NCBI GenBank assembly: GCA_964478705.1
Contig: CAYZIR010000003.1
Span: forward strand, 17,223 to 81,222
Source of the DNA: an uncultured Candidatus Saccharibacteria bacterium
Lineage (GTDB): Bacteria; Patescibacteriota; Minisyncoccia; Phycocordibacterales; EsbW-18
Direction of reading: 5' to 3'
Length of the DNA: 64,000 bases
The notes beneath the pieces were generated by a model. That model was not told where the DNA came from and made no database searches. It saw nothing but the letters and a program-made list of their open reading frames with translations. The translations under genes were made by a program, and so were the position numbers. This document shows, in pieces, positions 8,829 through 44,633 of the stretch (positions within the stretch are counted from its first letter, which is position 1; every line of letters begins with the position of its first letter).

Positions 8829-10619
8829 TTACTCTTTGCGTTTTGCTTTCGAGCGTTCGTTCTCGGTCAAGAATTGTTTTCGCAAGCGCACTGACTTCGG
8901 TGTAATTTCAAGATATTCATCCTCTGACATGATTTCAAGCCCGCGCTCAATAGAGAGAATGAATGGTGGAACGAGCGTCAACGCTTCGTCGGTTCCCGAT
9001 GCGCGAACGTTTGAGAGTTGTTTACCCTTCGTTGGGTTAACCGGCATTTCCTCACCCTTTGAGGTGTTACCGATTACCATACCTTCATACACTTCGGTTG
9101 CAGGACCAATATAGAGCACACCGCGATCCTGCAATCCCCAGAGAGAGAAACCGAGCGACTTCCCTGTTGCCATTGAAATCATTGATCCAACGACTTTACG
9201 TCGGATTTCGCCAGCGTATGGGCGGAAACCAATCACACGTGATGCAAAAATACCTTCTCCTTTCGTATCAACAATAAATTGGTTTCGATATCCAAGAATA
9301 CCTCGTGTTGGACCCTCAAAGATGAGTCGAACACTCGTCTCATGTTGCTTCATATCTTTCATGATGAATCCACGCTGACCCAGTCGCTCAATAACAACGC
9401 CTTGGTAGATTGCTGGCGTGTCGATTGTCACTTCTTCAAACGGTTCAACCTTCTTCCCTTCTTCTTCCTTAATGATTACTTGTGGTTGTGAGACCTGTAC
9501 TTCGTATCCGGCACGACGCATGTTTTCCAAAAGGATCGAAATATGGAGCTCACCACGGCCGTATACCTTAAAATTTTCATTCGTTGCAAAATCAACGCGA
9601 AGTCCAACGTTCACTTCAAGCTCGCGTTCAAGATAGTCACGAATTTGACGTGATGTCACATACTTTCCTTCTTTACCAGCAAACGGAGAATTGTTGACCA
9701 AAAATTGAAGGACGATGGTTGGTTCGTCAACCGCAATCGCAGGAAGCGCTTCGGCATCTGCGCTCTGGCATACCGTCTCACCGATGTCGATTGCAGGCAA
9801 ACCGGCAATAATTGCAATATCGCCTGCGCCCGCTTCAGCAACCTCTGTTCGCTCAAGCCCAGTAAAAGTGAAAACGTTCGTGATTTTTCCAGGTCGTGTC
9901 TCCCCTTTCATATTTTTTACGAACACGTTCATACCTGCTTTCACGGTACCTTCATAAATACGTGCAACGGCAAGTCGACCGAGGAAGTTATCGTAGGCGA
10001 GGTTAAATGGCTGTAAACGAAGTGGTTTTGCAGACAGCTCGGCTGATGATGCAACAGGGACTTTCTCAAGAATCAAATCAAGGAGTGGCATCAGGTCTTT
10101 TTGTTCGTCGTCGAGCTTTCGCATCGCAACACCGTTGCGTCCAATTGCATACATCACTGGAAAATCTGCTTGCGCATCAGATGCGCCCAGCTCAAGGAAG
10201 AGTTCGAGCACTTGTTCCTCACAACGTGCAGGATCCGCGGCGGGCTTATCGATCTTGTTGATGATGACAATTGGTTTCAATCCGAGTTCGAGTGATTTCT
10301 TCAATACAAAACGAGTCTGTGGCATCGGACCTTCCTGTGCATCAACGACCAAAAGGACCGAGTCGATTGAACGAAGAACGCGCTCTACTTCAGAACCGAA
10401 GTCGGCGTGACCGGGGGTGTCAACGATGTTAATCTTCGTTCCCTTGTAGGAAACGGATGTGTTCTTGGCGTAAATGGTAATACCACGCTCTTGTTCAAGG
10501 GCGTTTGAGTCCATCGAGACACCTTCTTTGGTCGCCCCTGTCTGGCGCATCAAAGCATCGGTAAGAGTCGTCTTGCCGTGGTCAACGTGTGCAATGATTG
10601 CAATGTTTCGTATTTCCAT
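8829..10619 (-). CDS. typA: Translational GTPase TypA/BipA
   Basis: AIIAHVDHGKTTL G1, DTPGHADF G3, NKIDK G4 and BipA C-terminal domain; 596 aa. Confidence 0.95.
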   Translation of the reverse strand: MEIRNIAIIAHVDHGKTTLTDALMRQTGATKEGVSMDSNALEQERGITIYAKNTSVSYKGTKINIVDTPGHADFGSEVERVLRSIDSVLLVVDAQEGPMPQTRFVLKKSLELGLKPIVIINKIDKPAADPARCEEQVLELFLELGASDAQADFPVMYAIGRNGVAMRKLDDEQKDLMPLLDLILEKVPVASSAELSAKPLRLQPFNLAYDNFLGRLAVARIYEGTVKAGMNVFVKNMKGETRPGKITNVFTFTGLERTEVAEAGAGDIAIIAGLPAIDIGETVCQSADAEALPAIAVDEPTIVLQFLVNNSPFAGKEGKYVTSRQIRDYLERELEVNVGLRVDFATNENFKVYGRGELHISILLENMRRAGYEVQVSQPQVIIKEEEGKKVEPFEEVTIDTPAIYQGVVIERLGQRGFIMKDMKQHETSVRLIFEGPTRGILGYRNQFIVDTKGEGIFASRVIGFRPYAGEIRRKVVGSMISMATGKSLGFSLWGLQDRGVLYIGPATEVYEGMVIGNTSKGEEMPVNPTKGKQLSNVRASGTDEALTLVPPFILSIERGLEIMSEDEYLEITPKSVRLRKQFLTENERSKAKRKE

Positions 10620-10620
10620 A

Positions 10621-10747
10621 CTTGTGAATTAATTGCACACGTTGTGCGAAAGGGGTCGGGAAAACTCTAGTTTTCCCGTATCGGAGAGCAGGGCGAAGCC
10701 CGCTGAGAACCGAGGGTTCTTAGGAAGTGGCGTAGCCACGACTGAGG
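10621..10747 (+). mobile_element. 127-nt multi-hairpin insertion (repeat family copy A) flanked by 32-bp direct duplication of the typA start
   Basis: 10589..10620 is identical to 10748..10779 (gtgcaatgattgcaatgtttcgtatttccata). The insert has palindromes gcacacgttgtgc, gggaaaac/gttttccc, gggcGAAgccc, ctgagaacc/ggttcttag, gtggc/gccac. Core 10688..10728 is identical to the reverse complement of 21853..21893. Confidence 0.6.
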
Positions 10748-10842
10748 GTGCAATGATTGCAATGTTTCGTATTTCCATATAAACAAAAAGAGCCGCGAGG
10801 GCTTTGACCCATCATACGATAAAAAGCTCTAAAAGACAACTC

Positions 10843-11436
10843 TTATGGCTTTAACCAGTGTCGCAACACCACGTGTCGGATACAAAGATGTATGAGTACA
10901 ACGACAACGACAAAAATGAGAAAGGACACCTCAAGCACGTGCACCATACCTGTGAATGTCTGCAATGTCATGTTGGTTGCATACGCAAGGAGAAGAATAC
11001 AGAGTGCAAGAGAAGCGGTCCCCAGTATATTCACAAACAGATAGCGCCAAAAAGGAGTCTTATACATACCGGACATCACTTGCACAACGGTACGCGTTCC
11101 GTAGACAAATTTTGATATGTAGAGCGTTTTCAATCTATGAACGATGAAAAAAGATGCGATACCTTCCATAACGCGCGACGCTCGTGACCCGATAATCCGT
11201 ATGACCGTGGTGCGAGCGAGGGATCGTCCCAATGCATACCATACGAGATCAGAGAGAAGCGCCGCGCTTATCATCAACCCGATGATAACCGATGTATCGA
11301 ATGTGCCTCGAAACGCCAAATACAGCGAAGGGAAAAATACCGTTTCCCCAAAAAAGAACAGACCAATGAAGATAAATATATACGGATGCAGGGAGAACGG
11401 TTCAAGAAAACTCTGTAGTATCGTCAAGAAATCCAT
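10843..11436 (-). CDS. DedA/SNARE-associated family membrane protein
   Basis: …FFGETVFFPSL… DedA motif and multiple TM helices. Confidence 0.75.
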   Translation of the reverse strand: MDFLTILQSFLEPFSLHPYIFIFIGLFFFGETVFFPSLYLAFRGTFDTSVIIGLMISAALLSDLVWYALGRSLARTTVIRIIGSRASRVMEGIASFFIVHRLKTLYISKFVYGTRTVVQVMSGMYKTPFWRYLFVNILGTASLALCILLLAYATNMTLQTFTGMVHVLEVSFLIFVVVVVLIHLCIRHVVLRHWLKP

Positions 11437-21835: not shown

Positions 21836-22001
21836 CTCACTCGCTTCGCTCTCTAAGAACCCTCGGTTCTCAGCGGGCTTCGCCCTGCTCTCCAACACGG
21901 GAGAACACGTGTTCTCCCGACCCCACTCCTGTTCGAATCCAAGTCCGCGCTCAAACAGAAGTCACATTTCTGATACCGGACGGTATCAGAAATATCACTT
22001 G
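21836..22001 (-). mobile_element. Repeat family copy B: ~166-nt structured insert between a degenerate duplicate of the tRNA-Gln 3' end and the tRNA-Gln gene
   Basis: Core 21853..21893 is the reverse complement of 10688..10728 (41/41). Palindromes gggagaacac/gtgttctccc (21898..21917) and ttctgatacc/ggtatcagaa (21969..21992). Inverted tRNA 3' fragment gttcgaatccaagtccg at 21931..21947. Flank 21817..21836 ttgttgccggactaggaatc versus tRNA end 21999..22018 ttgttgccggacttggattc. Confidence 0.55.
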
Positions 22002-22072
22002 TTGCCGGACTTGGATTCGAACCAAGATACCCTCCTCCAAAGGGAGGTGTCCTACCATTAGACGATCCGGCA
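22002..22072 (-). tRNA. tRNA-Gln (anticodon TTG)
   Basis: Reverse complement TGCCGGATCGTCTAATGGTAGGACACCTCCCTTTGGAGGAGGGTATCTTGGTTCGAATCCAAGTCCGGCAA. 7-bp acceptor stem, anticodon loop CTTTGGA, T-loop TTCGAAT. Confidence 0.9.
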
Positions 22073-39188: not shown

Positions 39189-39343
39189 TTTCTATTATAA
39201 TACCGCGTCCTCCGTGACTCGGAAGTCTCAGCAACTTCCTCACAAGAGGCTCAGAATACCCTTATAAAGCTTCCATCACGGAGTACTTAACTTGAGGGAA
39301 AACAGGGTCACGCACCTTTTCCCTAACAGCTAGCACCTAGAAA

Positions 39344-39748
39344 CTAGGCACTGTGTTTCTTATACCCTCTCCACCCCAAAAACGCGAAAAGGGAATTCGC
39401 AAGGAGAATGACAACACCGACCGCAATGATTTGTGGTCGGCTCATATCGGGAAGAAGTTTTTCATACACGAACCAGAACCCGATCATGCCAGCGACGATA
39501 TCGAGAATCCAGTTTTCAAGTTCCTCCGCGATACCAAAGACCATTTCACCTATTTCCCATCCGGTGAGAATCAGGAGCACAAACGGATACGCATACATCG
39601 GATGCATACCCACCGCTGCGAGCACGCAGGCAGAGACCGCACCAGTCAGTGCATGGACAATCATCCAGAGGTCCCATATTTTCCCTTCCTGAAAACTCCA
39701 CGAAATGAAGGGGACTGGATCGGGTGCTTTAAAATTTATTTTCTTCAT
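39344..39748 (-). CDS. Hypothetical membrane protein
   Basis: Four TM helices; no motif. Confidence 0.5.
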   Translation of the reverse strand: MKKINFKAPDPVPFISWSFQEGKIWDLWMIVHALTGAVSACVLAAVGMHPMYAYPFVLLILTGWEIGEMVFGIAEELENWILDIVAGMIGFWFVYEKLLPDMSRPQIIAVGVVILLANSLFAFLGWRGYKKHSA

Positions 39749-39850
39749 ATACTTCCACGGAGCGCCTTGATTCGTTCTTCAACCGGCGGGTGCGTCACCC
39801 CGCTAGTAAAGATTCGCAGGCTCATCTTACTACGGGGCAGGTGAAAAGTT

Positions 39851-40732
39851 TCATAGACCACGTAATGCTTTTATTCTCTCCTCAACCGGCGGATGTGTCA
39901 TAAACAATTTTGAAAGACCTTTTGTGCCTGGACCGAAAGGGTTTGCGATGAAGAGATGCGCTGTTGCCTGGTGCGCGGATTTAAGTGGTGCACCGTAGGT
40001 TGCAATTTTCTCAAGTGCGGATGCTAGCCCTTCTGGATAGCGTGTGAGAAGCGCGCCAGACGCGTCCGCGAGAAATTCACGCTTTCGTGAGATTGCAAGT
40101 TGAATCAAGGTAGCTGCAATGGGCGAAAGAACTATGAGGACGATGCCGACGATTGCGAGCACACCGCCAGCTTTATTATCTCGGTCTCCCCCGCCAGAAA
40201 ACGACGACCGGAGGAAGAAATCCGCAAGTAAGCTGATGAATCCCACCAACACAACGACGACTGTGGAAAGAAGAATATCCCGATTACCAATGTGTGAGAG
40301 CTCGTGCGCAATCACACCCTCAAGCTCTGTTCGCGTGAGCCGTTCGAGCAGCCCTGTCGTGACAGCAACCGCTGCGTGTTCTTTATCTCGACCCGTTGCA
40401 AACGCGTTCGGTGCAGAATCACGGATGATGTAGAGCTTCGGCATGGGAAGTCCCGCGGTGATTGAGAGATTTTCGGTGACCGTGTAGAGATCAAAGAATT
40501 CTTCGCGTGTTGCAGGGCGGGCCTTTGAAACCGCGAGCGCGATCTTGTCAGAGAACCAGTAGCTCCAGACGTTCATGATGATGCTTATAACAATCGCAAC
40601 CGGAAGTATCCCCGGCGCATCATAGACATAGCTCAAGCTCCAGCCGACAGCAATGACTATGATGAAAAAGAGGGTCATGAGGCCCCAGGTTTTTGCAATA
40701 TTGCTGTCTTGATGGGTGTAGAGGGTGGACAT
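39851..40732 (-). CDS. htpX: Zinc metalloprotease HtpX (M48)
   Basis: HELSHIGNRD HExxH motif and four TM helices; 293 aa. Confidence 0.9.
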   Translation of the reverse strand: MSTLYTHQDSNIAKTWGLMTLFFIIVIAVGWSLSYVYDAPGILPVAIVISIIMNVWSYWFSDKIALAVSKARPATREEFFDLYTVTENLSITAGLPMPKLYIIRDSAPNAFATGRDKEHAAVAVTTGLLERLTRTELEGVIAHELSHIGNRDILLSTVVVVLVGFISLLADFFLRSSFSGGGDRDNKAGGVLAIVGIVLIVLSPIAATLIQLAISRKREFLADASGALLTRYPEGLASALEKIATYGAPLKSAHQATAHLFIANPFGPGTKGLSKLFMTHPPVEERIKALRGL

Positions 40733-40744
40733 GGACTGGGTTCA

Positions 40745-40828
40745 AGGTGCTAGGTGATAGGTTCTAGGTGCTAGGTGATAGAGACTAGGTACTAGCTTAT
40801 AGCTTTTAGGGTGTAGGGTGTAGAAGAT
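40745..40828. repeat. 12 tandem heptamers (consensus AGGTGNT) immediately upstream of htpX
   Basis: aggtgct aggtgat aggttct aggtgct aggtgat agagact aggtact agcttat agctttt agggtgt agggtgt agaagat. Related shorter arrays at 42004..42040, 51440..51470, 39325..39347 and 42965..42990. Confidence 0.7.
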
Positions 40829-41057
40829 TCAAATGCAGTGGGAATTAATGCGAGTCGTTCATGAGGTCATTGATCTGTGCACTCGCTTCTGTTGTATGAA
40901 GTGCAATCTCTTCAAGACCTTGAAACAGCTTCCAGGTAATCGATATCATCATCACAAATGCAAACACTACGAGAAGCCATATCTTGCTGACATTTGTATT
41001 ACCACGAGAGGATATCGTCGGCATAAGAATGAGGGTTTAGCCACTTGGGTATGGCCA

Positions 41058-41411
41058 CTAGGGTTGAAGCGAAGCAATAAGCTTGTTGAGCATCCGCATA
41101 ACTTCGTCAAGAATGCATTCTGCGGATTCTGTGTCTGCCCTACCTATCATACCAATTTCCTTGACTATAGTCAGATGCGTCTCGAGTTCTGCTCCTGAAC
41201 CGAAACTCACCCTTAAAAATTGAATATATTCGGCTCTGTGTTTTCGAGCATATCCTTCTGCAATATTCGCTGGGATAGAAACCACCGCGCGGTGCATTTG
41301 AGAAATTAGTCCGTATTTTTCGTCCTTCGGAAGTAAGGCAGTGAGAATATAGATTTCTTTCACCAAAGCGATACTTCGTTTCCAAACAACGAGGTCACGG
41401 TAGGTTTGCAT
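41058..41411 (-). CDS. Four-helix-bundle protein (TIGR02436, 23S-rRNA intervening-sequence protein family)
   Basis: 117 aa, …YGLISQMHRAVVSIPANIAEGYARKH…F…SFGS… hallmark. Flanked by ~21-bp inverted repeats GAGGGTTTAGCCACTAGGG at 41033..41065 and 41412..41447. Confidence 0.8.
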   Translation of the reverse strand: MQTYRDLVVWKRSIALVKEIYILTALLPKDEKYGLISQMHRAVVSIPANIAEGYARKHRAEYIQFLRVSFGSGAELETHLTIVKEIGMIGRADTESAECILDEVMRMLNKLIASLQP

Positions 41412-41445
41412 CCCTATACCCTAACCCCTAGTGGCTAAACCCTCC

Positions 41446-42003
41446 CTAAAATTGTACTTTCACTGGTTCGCGGGCTTCTGGATTCTCGTCGAGATCGAAG
41501 AAGTCGCGTTTGCCAAAGCCAAACATTCCGGCGATAAGGTTGCTCGGGAATGTTTGAACCGCGGTGTTCAAGTCGCGAACATTGCCGTTGTAGAAGCGAC
41601 GTGCTGCCTGAATTTTGTTTTCGGTGTCAGAAAGTTCGCGCTGAAGTTCGAGGAAGTTTTGGTTTGCTTTCAAGTCTGGATATGCTTCAGCAACCGCAAA
41701 GAGCGATTTCAAAGCACCCGTGAGCATATTTTCTGCTTTTGCATGATCGCCAATCGATTGTGCGCCCATCGCTGCTGCTCGTGCTTTGGTCACATTTTCA
41801 AACGCTTCGCGTTCGTGTGTCGCGTATCCCTTTACAGTCTCAATCAGGTTTGGAATCAAATCGTAGCGACGCTTCATCTGCACATCAATATCTGACCACG
41901 CTTCATCCGAACGAACTCGTAAACGGACGAAACGGTTGTAGAGCACGATGATGCCGACAATGAAAACCGCGAGGATAATGAGAAAGATAAAAAGTGGTGT
42001 CAT
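41446..42003 (-). CDS. lemA: LemA family protein
   Basis: N-terminal TM then …LIETVKGYA.HE…F..VT.AR… LemA signature. Confidence 0.85.
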   Translation of the reverse strand: MTPLFIFLIILAVFIVGIIVLYNRFVRLRVRSDEAWSDIDVQMKRRYDLIPNLIETVKGYATHEREAFENVTKARAAAMGAQSIGDHAKAENMLTGALKSLFAVAEAYPDLKANQNFLELQRELSDTENKIQAARRFYNGNVRDLNTAVQTFPSNLIAGMFGFGKRDFFDLDENPEAREPVKVQF

Positions 42004-42098
42004 GGGATAGGTTCTAGGTGATAGCTTATAGGTTCTAGAAATACAAAGTAAGTATAACAGAAAAAGAAAAGCGCCGACGAATGTCGGCGCACCAGAAA

Positions 42099-42323
42099 CT
42101 AGGCAAGAACAGAAGGCTCCGACTCATCGAAATAGCGAAGCGCCTGCTTTTGCAGATTCGCTTCAGCAAGACCGAGAAGCGAACCATCTCCGAGGTACGA
42201 GTCGTGCAAGAACCCCTGGTAGCGATCTCGGGCAACTACTTTTTCCGCCTGAGGCCTCTCGTTCTCAGAACTGATTTCAGTACCCGATTTTGGTTCCTTT
42301 TCGATCACAAGATCTCCTTTCAA
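42099..42323 (-). CDS. Small hypothetical protein (74 aa)
   Basis: ORF overlapping the end of the upstream gene by 4 nt. Confidence 0.35.
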   Translation of the reverse strand: MKGDLVIEKEPKSGTEISSENERPQAEKVVARDRYQGFLHDSYLGDGSLLGLAEANLQKQALRYFDESEPSVLA

Positions 42324-42841
42324 TCGTCTGACCAGAGGCCCTTAGAGGCGCGCCGGTTTTTACGTTGGTAGAGAGCGTCGGAAAATGTCCGTATGAAGTG
42401 AACGCATTTCCACAAGAGAGCGAAGGGGTAGAAAGTCACACCTAAAATGATCACCAAGACAGCCACCCCACCAAGCGCAAGATCGGAGATACCCGAGAGA
42501 TAGCCAGAGATGACGCCTTCGTCCCCTATCTCGAATTCTTGATCCTCCGAAGAAGTGTCCTGGACCTCGTCTGGGTCTCTCTTGAAAAGAGGTGTGCCTG
42601 CGACAGCAAAACGAGCACTCCGAACTCTTCCGTCTGGGCGACGAACCTGCCACTCGTTGCCTTGAGCAACTTCATGCCGAATAGTCTTGAACGTCTTGAA
42701 GGAGCGCAGTAAGAACTCTTTGACCGACAGCCCCTCCTTTTCAGCAAGTTTCAGGATATCCTCACCAAACTCTTGAGGCACAGAAAACTCCACACGCTTT
42801 CTTTTTCTTTTGGCCTCTTTCTCAAAATCAATCAACATCAC
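42320..42841 (-). CDS. Hypothetical protein with N-terminal ribbon-helix-helix-like region and C-terminal TM helix
   Basis: Basic N-terminus (KRKRKRVEFSVPQEFGEDILKLAEKEG…) and TM LALGGVAVLVIILGVTFYPFALLW. Confidence 0.45.
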   Translation of the reverse strand: MMLIDFEKEAKRKRKRVEFSVPQEFGEDILKLAEKEGLSVKEFLLRSFKTFKTIRHEVAQGNEWQVRRPDGRVRSARFAVAGTPLFKRDPDEVQDTSSEDQEFEIGDEGVISGYLSGISDLALGGVAVLVIILGVTFYPFALLWKCVHFIRTFSDALYQRKNRRASKGLWSDD

Positions 42842-43007
42842 CTACCTCCGAGGAGAAAAATTTGTTTTAGAACACCCGAGAAGACAATACAATTATTAAA
42901 CAAAAAAGCAAGACATCACTGCCCTGCTTTCTGTTTTTTGTTTCCCCTATCCCCCTGCCTTCCGGCAGGCAGGCTAACCCCTATAAGCTAGCACCTAGAA
43001 CCTGCTT

Positions 43008-44633
43008 CTAATATTCTCCCCCGTGCTGATGCGGAGCCGGAGGAGCTTTTTCTTCTGGTTCATCAGCAACAGCAACTTCTGTTGTAATCAGCATCGCTGC
43101 AGCTGAAACCGCATTCTGTACCGCGGTGCGTGTCACTTTGACTGGATCAACGATACCCGCAGTAAGCATGTCTTCAACGATTGTGTCGTTGCCCGCATCG
43201 TATCCAGAATTCTTCCCGCCCGCCTTCACACGGTCAACAATGACGAGACCGTCGTCTTTGCCTGCGTTCTTTGCAATCTGCTGAAGCGGAGCCTCGAGCG
43301 ACTTGATGACGATTGAGTAACCGATACCTTCAGCATCGTTTGGCATTTTTGCATTTCCGAGTTTGCCGGCGACTTTGACCAACGCGCTACCACCACCCGG
43401 AACGATTCCCTCTTCGATCGCAGCTTTTGTCGCGTTGACTGCATCTTCGATCTTGAGCTTGAGGTATTTCATCTCGGTCTCGGTGGCTGCACCAACACGA
43501 ATCACCGCAACACCGCCCGAGAGCTTGCCGATGCGCTCTTGAATCTTTTCTTTATCATATTTTGACTTCGTGATATGAAGCTGTGCTTTGAGCTGCTTCA
43601 CACGTTCATCAATTGCAGCTTTTGCACCCTTGCCACCAACAATCACCGTGCTGTCTTTTGTTGATACAACACGGCGCGCTTTTCCGAGCATATCGATTGT
43701 TGCGGTTTCAAGTTTGAGACCGGTGTCTTCTGAGACAACCGTTGCACCAACGGTAATCGCGATATCAGCAAGCATCTCTTTTTTCTTATCACCAAAACCT
43801 GGAGCTTTGACCGCGAGCACACTGAATCCTCCGCGAAGCTTGTTGAGAACAAATGTTGTGAGTGCTTCACCGTCGACGTCATCAGCAATGATTACAAGCT
43901 CTTTTGTTCCTGACTGTGCCAAGCCTTCCAAAAGCGGCAAAATGTCCTTAACTGCTGAGACTTTCTTTTCAGTGATGAGCACAGAAACATCGCGGTATTC
44001 AGCCTCCATTCGTTCGCTGTTGGTCACCATGTATGCCGAAACATATCCCCTGTCAATCTCAAGACCTTCGACGATTTCGGTATCAACACCAAATGTTTGA
44101 GATTCTTCCACAGTGACAACGCCATCTTTGCCAACTTTTTCGATGGTTTCAGCGATTGTCGTACCCAGTTCTTCTGATTCTGCAGAAATAGTCGCAACCT
44201 GCTTCACCTCTTCTTTGTTCTTCACTGGCTTTGCGATATCACGAAGTGCTGTCACAACATCAGTAGATGCTTTTTCCATGCCGCGACGAACACCCATCGC
44301 GTTCATACCCATGGTGGTGTGGCGCAACCCTTCGTTCACAAGCGCCTGCACAAGGATCGTTGCGGTCGTCGTACCATCACCCGCGATGTCGTTAGTCTTT
44401 CCTGCTACTTCTTTGACGATCGATGCGCCCATGTTCTCGAACTTATCTTTGAGTTCAATCTCTTTGGCGATAGAAACACCGTCGTTCGTTATCATCGGCG
44501 CACCATAACCCTTATCGAGCACAGCATTGCGCCCGCGCGGACCAAGCGTCACTTTGACTGCATTCGCGACCTTATCGATTCCTCGTTGCAAAGCCTCGCG
44601 TGCTTCTCGATCAAATAGAATCTTTTTTGACAT
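43008..44633 (-). CDS. groEL: Chaperonin GroEL
   Basis: Full-length Cpn60, …AVKAPGFGD…, C-terminal repeat region; 541 aa. Confidence 0.97.
   Translation of the reverse strand: MSKKILFDREAREALQRGIDKVANAVKVTLGPRGRNAVLDKGYGAPMITNDGVSIAKEIELKDKFENMGASIVKEVAGKTNDIAGDGTTTATILVQALVNEGLRHTTMGMNAMGVRRGMEKASTDVVTALRDIAKPVKNKEEVKQVATISAESEELGTTIAETIEKVGKDGVVTVEESQTFGVDTEIVEGLEIDRGYVSAYMVTNSERMEAEYRDVSVLITEKKVSAVKDILPLLEGLAQSGTKELVIIADDVDGEALTTFVLNKLRGGFSVLAVKAPGFGDKKKEMLADIAITVGATVVSEDTGLKLETATIDMLGKARRVVSTKDSTVIVGGKGAKAAIDERVKQLKAQLHITKSKYDKEKIQERIGKLSGGVAVIRVGAATETEMKYLKLKIEDAVNATKAAIEEGIVPGGGSALVKVAGKLGNAKMPNDAEGIGYSIVIKSLEAPLQQIAKNAGKDDGLVIVDRVKAGGKNSGYDAGNDTIVEDMLTAGIVDPVKVTRTAVQNAVSAAAMLITTEVAVADEPEEKAPPAPHQHGGEY

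Follow-up and report, generated by a model that had tools for sequence, protein, structure and literature searches.

A four-helix-bundle gene between inverted heptanucleotide arrays: a passenger cassette in a predicted lemA-htpX operon of Patescibacteria

Background

What is a protein named after the intervening sequences of 23S rRNA doing between two protein-coding genes? The question is raised by a 64-kb stretch of DNA from a Patescibacteria genome, which we call the window. In it a gene of this four-helix-bundle (4HB) family lies, bracketed by inverted repeats, between lemA and htpX. To our knowledge the "23S rRNA IVS protein" family has thousands of members, two solved structures and no known function. 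A second puzzle is the over-abundance of heptanucleotide repeats in intergenic DNA, and we know of no explanation that either has received in about three decades. In the window locus and its relatives the family and the heptamer repeats are physically coupled in a stereotyped cassette. This turns the two puzzles into one question, whether the repeats are bound by the protein or merely form a stem that permits the gene to sit in an operon.

The initial annotation took the locus for an rRNA intervening sequence (IVS) module far from any rRNA gene, either mobile or co-opted as a transcript processed by RNase III. The heptamer nature of the arms and four more arrays within 2 kb were absent from that reading. 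We believe the descriptive account given here, of heptamer arms around a 4HB gene, a passenger cassette in the lemA-htpX operon and a widespread architecture, is near certain. A search of mainly open-access literature and bioRxiv preprints found no report linking heptamer repeats to the PF05635 family, which is not proof that none exists.

The gene and its protein

The 4HB gene (41058..41411, minus strand) starts with ATG and encodes 117 aa. Its family assignment by the initial annotation stands, since in profile searches the protein matches PF05635 (E=1.2e-34, 119.1 bits against a cut-off of 33.8) and TIGR02436 (E=8e-33, 112.9 bits against a cut-off of 24). The AF2 monomer model (pLDDT 92.1) has helices at 2-24, 35-55, 62-85 and 91-115, and Foldseek matches it to Xcc0516 (PDB 2GSC, TM 0.83-0.88) and BT_0352 (2RLD, TM 0.81-0.87); by model and search alike the fold is a four-helix bundle like theirs. 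Xcc0516, at 40-41% identity, is the closest solved structure, and both deposited entries hold five chains. The R-x3-S-x3-N-x2-E-G motif described for the family (PMC3936711) is present as R41, S45, N49, E52 and G53. Across 24 homologues the last four of these residues never vary, and R41 is kept in at least 90%. The protein is near neutral (pI 7.9, 15 K+R, 14 D+E).

Against relative L001 the gene has a dN/dS of 0.18 and a dS of 0.96, the neighbouring genes having a dS of 1.05-1.34. These rates show purifying selection on the gene and vertical descent together with the genes beside it, so that this copy is not recently mobile. There is no second 4HB gene in the 64-kb window. The proposal of a mobile module therefore fails for the window copy, which is single in the window, has a dS near that of its neighbours and sits at the same junction in 16 other species.

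Arms made of heptamers

The 5' arm (41412..41444, minus strand) consists of four UAG-phased heptamers, seen on the plus strand as a CTA array of 4 units at 41414-41441. It begins 1 nt past the lemA stop codon, reads GAGGGTT TAGCCAC TAGGGGT TAGGGTA TAGGG on the sense strand, and is followed at once by the ATG of the 4HB gene (41409-41411). The 3' arm (41031..41066, minus strand; sense strand CAACCCTAGTGGCCATACCCAAGTGGCTAAACCCTC) complements the 5' arm with some degeneracy and includes the gene's stop codon, TAG, at 41058-41060. The inverted repeats of the initial annotation are real, and it was right that they overlap the stop and abut the start; their bounds are slightly wider than it gave, 41031-41066 and 41409-41444, over which 36 nt are 75% complementary. 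The outer 15 bp, read from the sequence, are perfect (GAGGGTTTAGCCACT / AGTGGCTAAACCCTC). Both arms are tandem heptamers phased on TAG, UAGNNNN 5' of the gene and complementary CUA-type 3' of it. The whole element measures 414 nt with arms of 33-36 nt, and the geometry is IVS-like as claimed: in Coxiella the IVS is 428-444 nt long, and RNase III cleaves its terminal stem of 28 bp (PMC4990558).

Folding 41020-41460, as had been proposed, gives a predicted structure that the two arms close entirely (MFE -139.6 kcal/mol, z = -4.3; 0 of 100 shuffles fold as well). The duplex of the two arms alone is predicted at -47.6 kcal/mol, with z = -6.2 against shuffles. None of the partners compared suits the UAG arm nearly as well as its cognate 3' arm, at z -6.2 in the window and -8.2 in L180. 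Pairing of the UAG arm with the array in the lemA 5' UTR, the array before htpX and the array at the operon's 3' end is weak (z about -2 to -2.8), and therefore a multi-partner RNA switch is not supported in the window genome. In L001 the arm pairing has decayed (z = -1.7) despite an intact 4HB gene.

A 19-mer from the arm, allowing at most 3 mismatches, matches at just the two arm sites in the 64-kb window, where shuffles predict 0.01 matches and 0 of 100 shuffles reach 2; further copies of the repeats are thus missing from the window. The arm ends show no target-site duplication: the flanks (aagaat before GAGGG, cctaaa after CCCTC) share no common direct repeat.

The operon and its other arrays

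The gene upstream of the cassette is lemA (41446..42003, minus strand; PF04011, E=7.9e-64) and the operon gene downstream is htpX, an M48 peptidase (39851..40732, minus strand; PF01435, E=1.3e-33). Between the 3' arm and the array that follows it lies ORF59 (40845..41024, minus strand), which is small and hydrophobic. It is 72% identical in L001 and called as a gene in L177 and L180, and it has no family match above threshold in Pfam and TIGR-type profile searches. The initial annotation was correct about rRNA too. There is none in the whole window, where three tRNAs alone reach Rfam gathering scores, and between 39200 and 43100 no Rfam family matches even at E<=1.

Besides the two arms the window has four TAG/CTA arrays, and all six lie within 2 kb of the 4HB gene. 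Five CUA-type heptamers (42008..42042, minus strand; sense strand CTAGAAC CTATAAG CTATCAC CTAGAAC CTATCCC) abut the lemA ATG and probably make up most of the lemA 5' UTR. A terminator-like GC hairpin with a T run lies at 42071..42090 (minus strand) and is conserved in L001; a -10-like sequence, TGTTATACT, comes after it, and the two together are the probable upstream boundary of a lemA-4HB-htpX transcription unit. Just upstream of the htpX start is an array of 11 heptamers (40751..40827, minus strand), TAG-phased on the plus strand and CUA-type on the operon sense strand. It is the sole stringent tandem repeat at lags 4-11 in the 64-kb window, and relatives have 4-5 units there against its 11. 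At the 3' end of the operon a CTAG-containing array of 4 CTA and 3 TAG units (39323..39351, strand not assigned) overlaps the stop of ORF134 (39344..39748), and the 33 nt of 39314-39346 are 82% complementary to 40758-40790. The last array (42974..43001, strand not assigned) lies just past the groEL stop (43008) and bounds a segment holding ORF173 and ORF74 that is replaced by unrelated sequence in L001. The 24 nt of 42980-43003 are 96% complementary to 42009-42032. Because the terminator-like hairpin lies between the members of this pair, copying at the DNA level suits the pair better than RNA pairing does.

The arrays keep their positions in other species, at a dS of about 1. Two other assemblies are identical to the window, 100% over 5.35 kb and 1.5 kb with arrays included, and runs SRR16481183/87 contain the identical contig. 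There is no array-length polymorphism between these samples, as a contingency-locus test would look for; they probably come from one population and are therefore uninformative about a hypermutable contingency locus.

The junction itself exists elsewhere. In 41 of 80 metagenomic lemA loci htpX directly adjoins lemA, with a gap of at most 27 nt in 14, and a single locus has a 4HB gene, a 34%-identical paralogue with heptamer arms of its own. We offer this gene order as support for lemA-htpX being the ancestral junction into which the cassette was inserted. Strict arrays also favour the place: in the 80 lemA loci 10 of 16 lie within 150 nt past the lemA stop, and the density elsewhere is 0.016 per kb. 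Some lemA-htpX junctions have arrays and no 4HB gene in the stretch examined. Gene-less TAG/CTA hairpins exist as well, some with units of the window arms, for example a TAGCCAC-type hairpin in L107.

The same layout in other genomes

We compared 80 homologous GTDB loci, nearly all labelled as candidate-phyla-radiation (CPR) bacteria. A TAG array of at least 3 units within 80 nt upstream is present in 60 of the 80 and a CTA array at the stop in 66, with both in 51. In the two flanks the lag-7 autocorrelation reaches 0.46 and 0.44, where controls give 0.25. An arm pairs with the other arm of its own locus at -34.8 kcal/mol, with arms of other loci at -26.1 and with shuffled partners at -20.6 (own versus cross-locus, Wilcoxon p = 3e-10), and the order of unit types is mirrored between the two arms. 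TAG is invariant; at the four remaining positions units differ, also inside a single array, and each lineage or paralogue has its own heptamer, common to both its arms. Strict arrays peak at 4-5 units (5 units in 21-22 loci, 6 units in 1-2). By a rough calculation TAG/CTA arrays are about 70-fold denser in the 80-90 nt beside 4HB genes than in the flanks of 3 kb on either side. Arm mismatches include 44 of the sense-wobble and 51 of the antisense-wobble kind, and 197 of 292 are transversions; with no excess of G.U on the sense strand, they provide no positive hint that selection acts on an RNA helix.

The neighbours are co-oriented with the 4HB gene in 67 of 77 cases upstream and 65 of 77 downstream. 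The gaps are about one arm long, so that the arms fill the intergenic space between co-directional host genes, and those genes are unrelated housekeeping genes of 86 and 77 Pfam families. Of 16 plasmid loci 13 have a lag-7 array on at least one flank, compared with 8 of 316 background windows. Inverted heptamer arrays of other sequences flank PF05635 genes in Xanthomonadales, cyanobacteria, Riemerella and Azospirillum, and the layout recurs in at least five phyla. Protein family and repeats are coupled in such a cassette in Patescibacteria, Xanthomonadales, an alphaproteobacterium, cyanobacteria and a Bacteroidota species. In Pseudanabaena, and apparently also in Gemmatirosa, the arrays are in direct rather than inverted orientation, which counts against a stem mechanism; the Pseudanabaena array is longer than 14 units.

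This survey bears on the claim that such proteins are typically encoded inside 23S IVSs, which reflects the historical name of the family. When the 80 GTDB loci were scanned crudely for ten conserved rRNA motifs, there were two isolated single matches in all and at most one in any locus. Wherever the records are annotated, the genes on either side of the 16 plasmid loci and the 4 Xanthomonadales loci are annotated or called as protein-coding. Of 278 annotated 23S ORFs in CPR rRNA insertions, no more than 4 are something other than homing endonucleases (PMC11270868). By its own terms the initial annotation would fall if no stable stem were predicted and the protein grouped with non-IVS homologues that never carry flanking repeats; homologues outside rRNA do carry inverted repeats, and on this point the annotation stands.

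Which explanation fits

The arrangement shows the element to be a passenger cassette in the predicted lemA-htpX operon of a Paceibacteria/Kaiserbacteria-like Patescibacteria genome, and an IVS-like RNA stem around its 4HB gene is plausible. Our preferred mechanism, held tentatively and with slightly less than even confidence, is that the arms pair in the operon mRNA, loop out the 4HB ORF as an rRNA intervening sequence does, and form a candidate RNase III site. The cassette would be transcribed as part of the predicted operon mRNA. Pairing would place the downstream gene near the stop codon that precedes the cassette, and we propose that the insertion is tolerated because of this. The imperfect stem of about 33 bp would hide the start region of the cassette and would offer a possible target to double-strand RNases, RNase III among them. 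In the window lineage every heptamer carries UAG, so ribosomes arriving from upstream would be halted in any reading frame. A plain RNase III stem, as the initial annotation had it, keeps its stable closing stem and does not account for arms with a period of 7, an invariant TAG and no G.U excess, nor is it sufficient in L001, where the gene is intact and the pairing decayed. Pairing alone leaves the strict 7-nt period and the invariant TAG unexplained, and a second constraint must therefore exist, probably recognition by a protein.

That protein might be the 4HB protein itself. The arrays would then be its putative binding sites, at about one heptamer per subunit, used for translation autoregulation on RNA, for which TRAP is the model, or for array maintenance on DNA, with the nearby solo arrays as further sites. 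This can coexist with the stem model, and we judge it unlikely. The invariant TAG with its four variable positions suggests a recognised triplet plus spacer, a heptamer specific to a lineage or paralogue is common to both arms, and all six arrays of the window are within 2 kb of the gene. The peak at 4-5 units with its sharp drop at 6, which the Xanthomonadales arms of 4-5 units join, recalls the five chains in each of 2GSC and 2RLD, and the related bAvd acts in a ribonucleoprotein with a reverse transcriptase. However, the agreement of unit number with chain number is a numerical match only. A general nucleic-acid binder is usually more basic than a protein of pI 7.9, some arrays are far longer (11 units in the window, over 14 in Pseudanabaena), and arrays stand at lemA-htpX junctions where the stretch examined has no 4HB gene. 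It has also been natural to ask whether the element works at the level of DNA, with the arms as terminal inverted repeat arrays, the cassette moved or copied by recombination or replication, and the gene-less heptamer hairpins as non-autonomous or decayed derivatives. MITEs relate to transposons, and REP sequences to RAYT genes, in such a way. The cassette does occur at many unrelated junctions. The 4HB gene is patchy at the lemA-htpX junction, which the 34%-identical paralogue has occupied independently, and gene-less hairpins such as that of L107 share units with the window arms. The clustering of 10 of 16 strict arrays within 150 nt past the lemA stop in the 80 lemA loci, the symmetric mismatch spectrum, which fits double-stranded DNA, and the array-bounded segments that differ between the window and L001 point the same way. 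We nevertheless find DNA-level movement doubtful, given that no transposase, integrase or nuclease is seen among the immediate-neighbour families (top 25 listed), the arm ends lack a target-site duplication, and the 64-kb window has no identical or near-identical copies. The window copy is orthologous across species at a dS of about 1, its sequence is identical in two other samples, arrays included, and a search of IMG/VR found no phage-borne relatives.

The two remaining explanations do away with the element altogether. If the arrays were ordinary simple sequence repeats made by slippage, the inverted repeat would be coincidental or neutral. Heptamer repeats are indeed over-represented in the intergenic DNA of several phyla (PMC4679880, PMC4692102) and unit number varies among relatives, 11 against 4-5 upstream of htpX. 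Yet this account is already disfavoured and we regard it as very improbable. Simple slippage fits poorly because the units of one array differ; the arrays are some 70-fold denser beside 4HB genes than in the 3-kb flanks by our rough calculation, their unit order is mirrored, arms pair better within their own locus than across loci, their positions are kept across species at a dS of about 1, and five phyla have the arrangement. The Pfam family name would suggest a true rRNA IVS, a fragment derived from rRNA, or else the Avd gene of a diversity-generating retroelement (DGR), and there are weak matches to bAvd (26.9 bits) and DivGenRetAVD (23.7 bits) and a TM of about 0.7-0.8 to bAvd. For the window locus this is effectively refuted, and we give it almost no chance. 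The 64 kb hold no rRNA, and 39200-43100 yields nothing at E<=1; lemA and htpX flank the element in one operon, in a sequence independently assembled elsewhere; the Avd scores fall below their cut-offs of 40 (bAvd) and 80 (DivGenRetAVD) bits; and the neighbours are groEL, lemA, ORF59 and htpX with no reverse transcriptase.

Significance

The IVS architecture is not specific to rRNA: essential operons, accBC among them, and the lemA-htpX operon carry a passenger of the same kind, which the arms would loop out. This has a bearing on the way in which the gene downstream of the passenger continues to be translated. A bolder idea, which we think improbable at present, is that PF05635 proteins and heptanucleotide arrays are one two-part system across bacteria. 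If it were true, a presumed pentamer would recognise arrays on RNA or DNA, each subunit taking one of about five heptamers, and the 4HB gene would travel and persist between two arrays. Part of the STRR, GGGAATC, TAACTGA and TAG repeats would be gene-less sites of the system, and a cassette that happened to land in an rRNA helix would, as a special case, have become an ORF-bearing rRNA IVS.

Comparison with known systems

The ORF-bearing 23S IVSs (Leptospira, Coxiella burnetii S23p) share with the window element a PF05635 protein, a similar size and a stem enclosing the ORF, and terminal complementary sequences enclose the window element by repeat, fold and duplex alike. However, their host is 23S rRNA, and the window element is not inserted in an rRNA helix; it is flanked by lemA and htpX in a predicted mRNA operon. 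Its arms, unlike theirs, are phased heptamer arrays. Its ORF is under purifying selection, whereas Coxiella S23p appears not to be made in vivo according to its authors (PMC4990558).

The window protein falls short of a DGR accessory Avd, at 26.9 of the 40 bits needed for bAvd and 23.7 of 80 for DivGenRetAVD. It has the four-helix-bundle fold of bAvd, which in solved structures is part of a ribonucleoprotein with a reverse transcriptase; by analogy bAvd shows that such a fold can work in an RNA-protein complex. In contrast to a DGR, the window has no reverse transcriptase, template repeat or variable repeat near the gene, whose neighbours are groEL, ORF173, lemA, ORF59 and htpX. The element is not a transposon or MITE either, there being no transposase among its neighbours, no target-site duplication and a single copy in the window. 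No integron integrase is found among the neighbouring genes examined, and the repeats stand on both sides of the ORF as heptamer arrays, compared with an integron attC at the 3' end.

REP/REPIN sequences and their RAYT offer another comparison: a single-copy gene lies between inverted short repeats, and the repeats also occur gene-less in intergenic regions. The window cassette is similar in that inverted units flank the gene and gene-less arrays exist. Unlike RAYT, the 4HB protein is no HUH nuclease, no catalytic activity being known for it, and the window arrays are local (within 2 kb in 64 kb) rather than dispersed over the genome as REP are.

In their tandem 7-nt period and intergenic place the window arrays are like the cyanobacterial STRR, the GGGAATC / GGGGA(C/T)T repeats (Rehm 2015) and the TAACTGA repeats (MacGregor 2015), to which no function is assigned (PMC4679880, PMC4692102). 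Those repeats too often abut start or stop codons and often form convergent pairs, and TAACTGA, like the window's TAG units, gives stops in all three frames. The window arrays differ in being short, made of heterogeneous units and clustered around one gene, and those studies drew no link to PF05635.

The closest counterpart is the accB-4HB-accC cassette, found in four Xanthomonadales genera and including the crystallised Xcc0516; a search seeded with Xcc0516 brought up Xanthomonadales alone. The cassette's arms are GGGAATC x4 upstream and GATTCCC-type x4-5 ending at the accC ATG, and the array upstream of XCC0516 is independently listed in the supplement of Rehm et al. 2015. The C-rich arm reaches the accC start codon with no Shine-Dalgarno sequence visible by eye. 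The host operon is accB-accC instead of lemA-htpX, GGGAATC contains no stop codon whereas the window heptamers carry TAG, and it is at its 5' end that the annotated ORF is overlapped by an array, where in the window this happens at the 3' end. Despite these differences both cassettes are a co-oriented gene in a conserved two-gene operon, with inverted arrays of 4-5 heptamers filling the intergenic space.

The cassette and its operon

The ORF of 117 aa at 41058..41411 (minus strand, starting with ATG; by ORF call and profile match) was assigned in the initial annotation to the four-helix-bundle (4HB) family named after 23S rRNA intervening sequences (IVS), and both profiles of that family agree: PF05635 at E=1.2e-34 (119 bits, cut-off 33.8) and TIGR02436 at E=8e-33. 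The AlphaFold model, with 24 homologues as input, has four helices and a pLDDT of 92. Its top structural match is Xcc0516 (PDB 2GSC; 40-41% identity, TM 0.83-0.88), followed by BT_0352 (2RLD) and bAvd. Profile searches exclude a DGR Avd role for this locus.

The inverted repeat claimed around the gene is real. Its arms (41031-41066 and 41409-41444) are 36 nt each and 75% complementary, and the outermost 15 bp, read from the sequence, pair perfectly. As had been described, the stop codon (41058-41060) lies inside the 3' arm, and the 5' arm directly adjoins the start codon (41409-41411). The fold of 41020-41460 is closed as a whole by a stem of the two arms (MFE -139.6 kcal/mol, z = -4.3), and 0 of 100 shuffles fold as stably. 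The arm 19-mer quoted at that time has only two sites in the 64 kb and no third, with up to 3 mismatches tolerated and 0.01 matches expected in shuffled sequence. The reported lack of nearby rRNA extends to the entire window, and this excludes an rRNA origin of the locus. No Rfam family matches 39200-43100, even at E<=1.

Absent from that reading is the tandem-heptamer makeup of the arms. On the sense strand the 5' arm runs GAGGGTT TAGCCAC TAGGGGT TAGGGTA TAGGG and then at once ATG; it consists of four TAG-phased heptamers, and the 3' arm is its partly degenerate complement. Besides the arms, the 64 kb contain only four TAG- or CTA-phased period-7 arrays: at 39323-39351, at 40751-40827 (11 units, upstream of htpX), at 42008-42042 (five units, adjoining the lemA ATG) and at 42974-43001. 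A tandem-repeat scan of the window at lags 4-11 gives stringent matches at lag 7 only, and at 40745-40823 only.

Every gene of this stretch is on the minus strand, and the five-unit array is preceded by a -10-like TGTTATACT and a terminator-like hairpin (42090..42071, minus strand). This makes it likely that lemA, the 4HB gene, ORF59, htpX and ORF134 form a transcription unit with an array at each junction. Arrays occupy the same four junction positions in three related genomes (L180/L179 and L001, the closest other species), with varying unit number and sequence; upstream of htpX there are 11 units versus 4-5. In two other samples the sequence is 100% identical, arrays included, along stretches of 5.35 kb and 1.5 kb. 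Between the 11-unit array and the cassette's 3' arm sits ORF59 (40845-41024, minus strand), which is small and hydrophobic. L001 has a counterpart at 72% identity, and gene calls in L177 and L180 include the ORF; profile searches give no family match above threshold.

Between the window and L001, dN/dS is 0.18 for the 4HB gene (dS 0.96), 0.06 for lemA (dS 1.34) and 0.035 for htpX (dS 1.05). These substitution values show the 4HB gene to be functional and inherited together with its neighbours rather than a recent arrival. The suggestion that the module is mobile does not hold for the window copy, which has been co-inherited with lemA and htpX; the locus is an old, stable member of its class and not an active element.

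Two other features of the window deserve mention. The segment from groEL to the lemA promoter region (42091-43005; L001:2051-2319) is wholly different in the two species: the window has 915 nt that contain ORF173 and ORF74 (no family match for either in the profile search), versus 269 nt of unrelated sequence in L001. In both it starts directly after a TAG-type heptamer array 3' of groEL. A 72-nt GC-rich segment with several possible hairpins (10652-10723) is flanked by a pair of direct repeats of 32 nt that are 100% identical (10589-10620 and 10748-10779) and has a 90% complementary copy 11 kb off (21853-21924), about 80 nt from a tRNA (22002-22072). An Rfam search of 10500-10900 at E<=1 returns only a chance miRNA match.

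Heptamer arms across the gene family

A search at E<=1e-3 returns 1,526 relatives of the protein, and the named top matches are mostly Patescibacteria (candidate phyla radiation, CPR), such as Kaiserbacteria and Paceibacterota. We surveyed 80 homologous loci from GTDB genomes, counting as an upstream array at least 3 TAG units at 7-8-nt spacing within 80 nt of the start. Such an array is present in 60/80, complementary CTA units stand at the stop or just past it in 66/80, and 51/80 have both. Autocorrelation at lag 7 reaches 0.46 in the upstream flank and 0.44 in the downstream one; control segments give 0.25. The TAG is invariant by construction of the unit count; the remaining four positions vary even inside a single array. 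TAGCCAC, TAGGGTA and TAGCCAA are the commonest units, with TAGCTTT, TAGGTTG, TAGTGAG or TAGTTCC elsewhere. The two arms of one locus hold the same units in mirrored order, and mean pairing is stronger with the own partner (-34.8 kcal/mol) than with arms of different loci (-26.1; Wilcoxon p = 3e-10) or shuffled partners (-20.6). Strict array length peaks at 4-5 units, and 6 is almost never reached. In many loci the first 3'-arm units encode the protein C-terminus (...SLVAKP*). The heptamer-arm arrangement is a trait of the gene family.

Neighbours are co-oriented upstream in 67/77 loci and downstream in 65/77. The gap is typically 17-60 nt on the upstream side of the 4HB gene and -1 to 50 nt on the downstream side, so the arms leave almost no other intergenic space. 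These flanking genes are housekeeping genes unrelated to one another (RecA, FtsZ, RRF, IF-2, ATP synthase subunits, tRNA synthetases and RuvC among them) from 86 Pfam families upstream and 77 downstream, and no mobility genes are among the families listed. The sole recurrent context is lemA-htpX (16/80). In a sample of 80 metagenomic lemA loci whose LemA shares 61-78% identity with that of the window, htpX directly follows lemA in 41, with a gap of at most 27 nt in 14 of these. Only one such junction (L130) carries a 4HB gene, a paralogue at 34% identity whose own inverted heptamers are of the TCAGTTA type upstream and of the TAACnGn type downstream. Because so many loci have htpX adjoining and just one has the gene, the adjacency is probably ancestral and the cassette inserted. 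In L130, going by sequence, the junction is held by a very different family member.

Ten metagenomic lemA-htpX junctions (L114, L115, L118, L121, L123, L136, L139, L153, L154, L156) contain inserts of a narrow size range, 127-146 nt, with highly stable predicted hairpin folds (z -3.7 to -8.1). The inserts are mutually unrelated in sequence, some have short internal repeats, and they look like gene-less palindromic insertions at the window cassette's type of junction. In unrelated contigs (L180:1098-1177, in the lemA 5' UTR, and the L118 and L153 junctions) heptamer arrays contain within them the GC-rich palindrome CCTGCCTGCCGGCAGGCAGG or a close variant of it, which suggests a second small element inserting into arrays.

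Relatives beyond the CPR

The family also occurs on plasmids of cyanobacteria, Riemerella, Gemmatirosa and Azospirillum, among others (tblastn). Of the plasmid loci inspected, 13/16 have one or both flanks with a lag-7 match of 16 of 21 or better, a score that only 8/316 background windows reach. The non-CPR arrays are mostly inverted and lineage-specific (GGGAACA, GTCAGGA, GGCAGAG, AAGGTTT, GGACAGA); the conserved TAG is missing from the plasmid ones. Plasmid 4HB genes are co-oriented inside operons, for example with conjugation genes or as cas6-4HB-cas4 and cas10-4HB-cmr3, in agreement with an earlier report of 4HB-type genes inside cas loci (PMC3936711). Three loci on cyanobacterial plasmids (L085, L087, L172) have the 4HB gene inside a CRISPR-Cas operon with short tandem repeats on its flanks; the operon is cas6-4HB-cas4 in Pseudanabaena and in Anabaena sp. 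90, and it is cas10-4HB-cmr3 in Picosynechococcus. A 7-nt period is clear in the first two, and for L172 a different period gave the higher score. Pseudanabaena has arrays of >14 units in direct, not inverted, orientation.

The clearest parallel to the window cassette is accB-4HB-accC of Xanthomonadales: in Xanthomonas, Stenotrophomonas, Dyella and Dokdonella (L182-L185), accB and accC enclose the orthologue of Xcc0516. The upstream arm is GGGAATC x4, overlapping the annotated 4HB start, and the downstream arm, GATTCCC-type x4-5, ends exactly at the accC ATG. Rehm et al. 2015 independently give the XCC0516 upstream array in their supplement, with XCC0516 itself listed only as 'conserved'. The C-rich 3' arm (…GATTCCCTATTCCC) adjoins the ATG of essential accC and by eye contains no Shine-Dalgarno sequence in these four loci. 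In 3/4 genera the GGGAATC array encodes the annotated 4HB N-terminus (MENRES… or MGNRES…).

What the arms may do

Published work describes heptamer repeats as abundant in intergenic DNA, frequently in pairs and with no assigned function (PMC4679880, PMC4692102), and the 4HB family as functionally uncharacterised (PMC11270868). We found no literature, mainly among open-access full text and bioRxiv preprints, that joins the two. That ordinary repeats stand beside the gene by chance is disfavoured by the enrichment of arrays near 4HB genes and their recurrence across phyla.

Our preferred reading, inferred at every step, is that the arms would pair within the operon transcript and loop out the ORF. 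The upstream stop codon would thereby come near the downstream gene, so that the insertion is tolerated. The stem would also hide the cassette's own start region and is a candidate substrate for a double-strand RNase. In CPR lineages the UAG of each heptamer would halt ribosomes that arrive from upstream, whatever their frame.

A number of results count against an explanation at the RNA level alone. On the sense strand there is no G.U excess among the arm mismatches (44 vs 51), and the majority of mismatches are transversions; in L001 arm pairing has decayed while the 4HB gene is intact. Two window arrays are 96% complementary, yet a terminator-like hairpin stands between them; some non-CPR cassettes have direct arrays; and a stem needs neither a 7-nt period nor an invariant triplet. 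A DNA-level cassette, with solo arms as its derivatives or its targets, is allowed by gene-less heptamer hairpins in the flanks of several loci and at lemA-htpX junctions (that of L107 is built from the window's own TAGCCAC-type units) and by solo arrays near lemA: in the 80 lemA loci 10/16 strict TAG/CTA arrays lie within 150 nt 3' of the lemA stop, against 0.016 per kb elsewhere. However, no recombinase, target-site duplication or near-identical copy was seen. Putative binding of the 4HB protein to its own arrays fits the sharp ceiling at five units, the invariant triplet with a variable spacer, the lineage-specific heptamers and the five chains in crystal forms of solved relatives, taken together; the protein is almost neutral, though (pI 7.9), and some arrays are much longer.

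Under the preferred loop-out reading we rate the cassette as an IVS-type looped-out ORF that lies outside rRNA and whose defining feature is its heptamer-array arms. In Coxiella the IVS measures 428-444 nt, and RNase III cuts it within a terminal stem of 28 bp that surrounds the S23p ORF (PMC4990558); the element described here measures 414 nt and has arms of 33-36 nt. In anatomy the cassette matches an ORF-bearing rRNA IVS that has been moved into mRNA.
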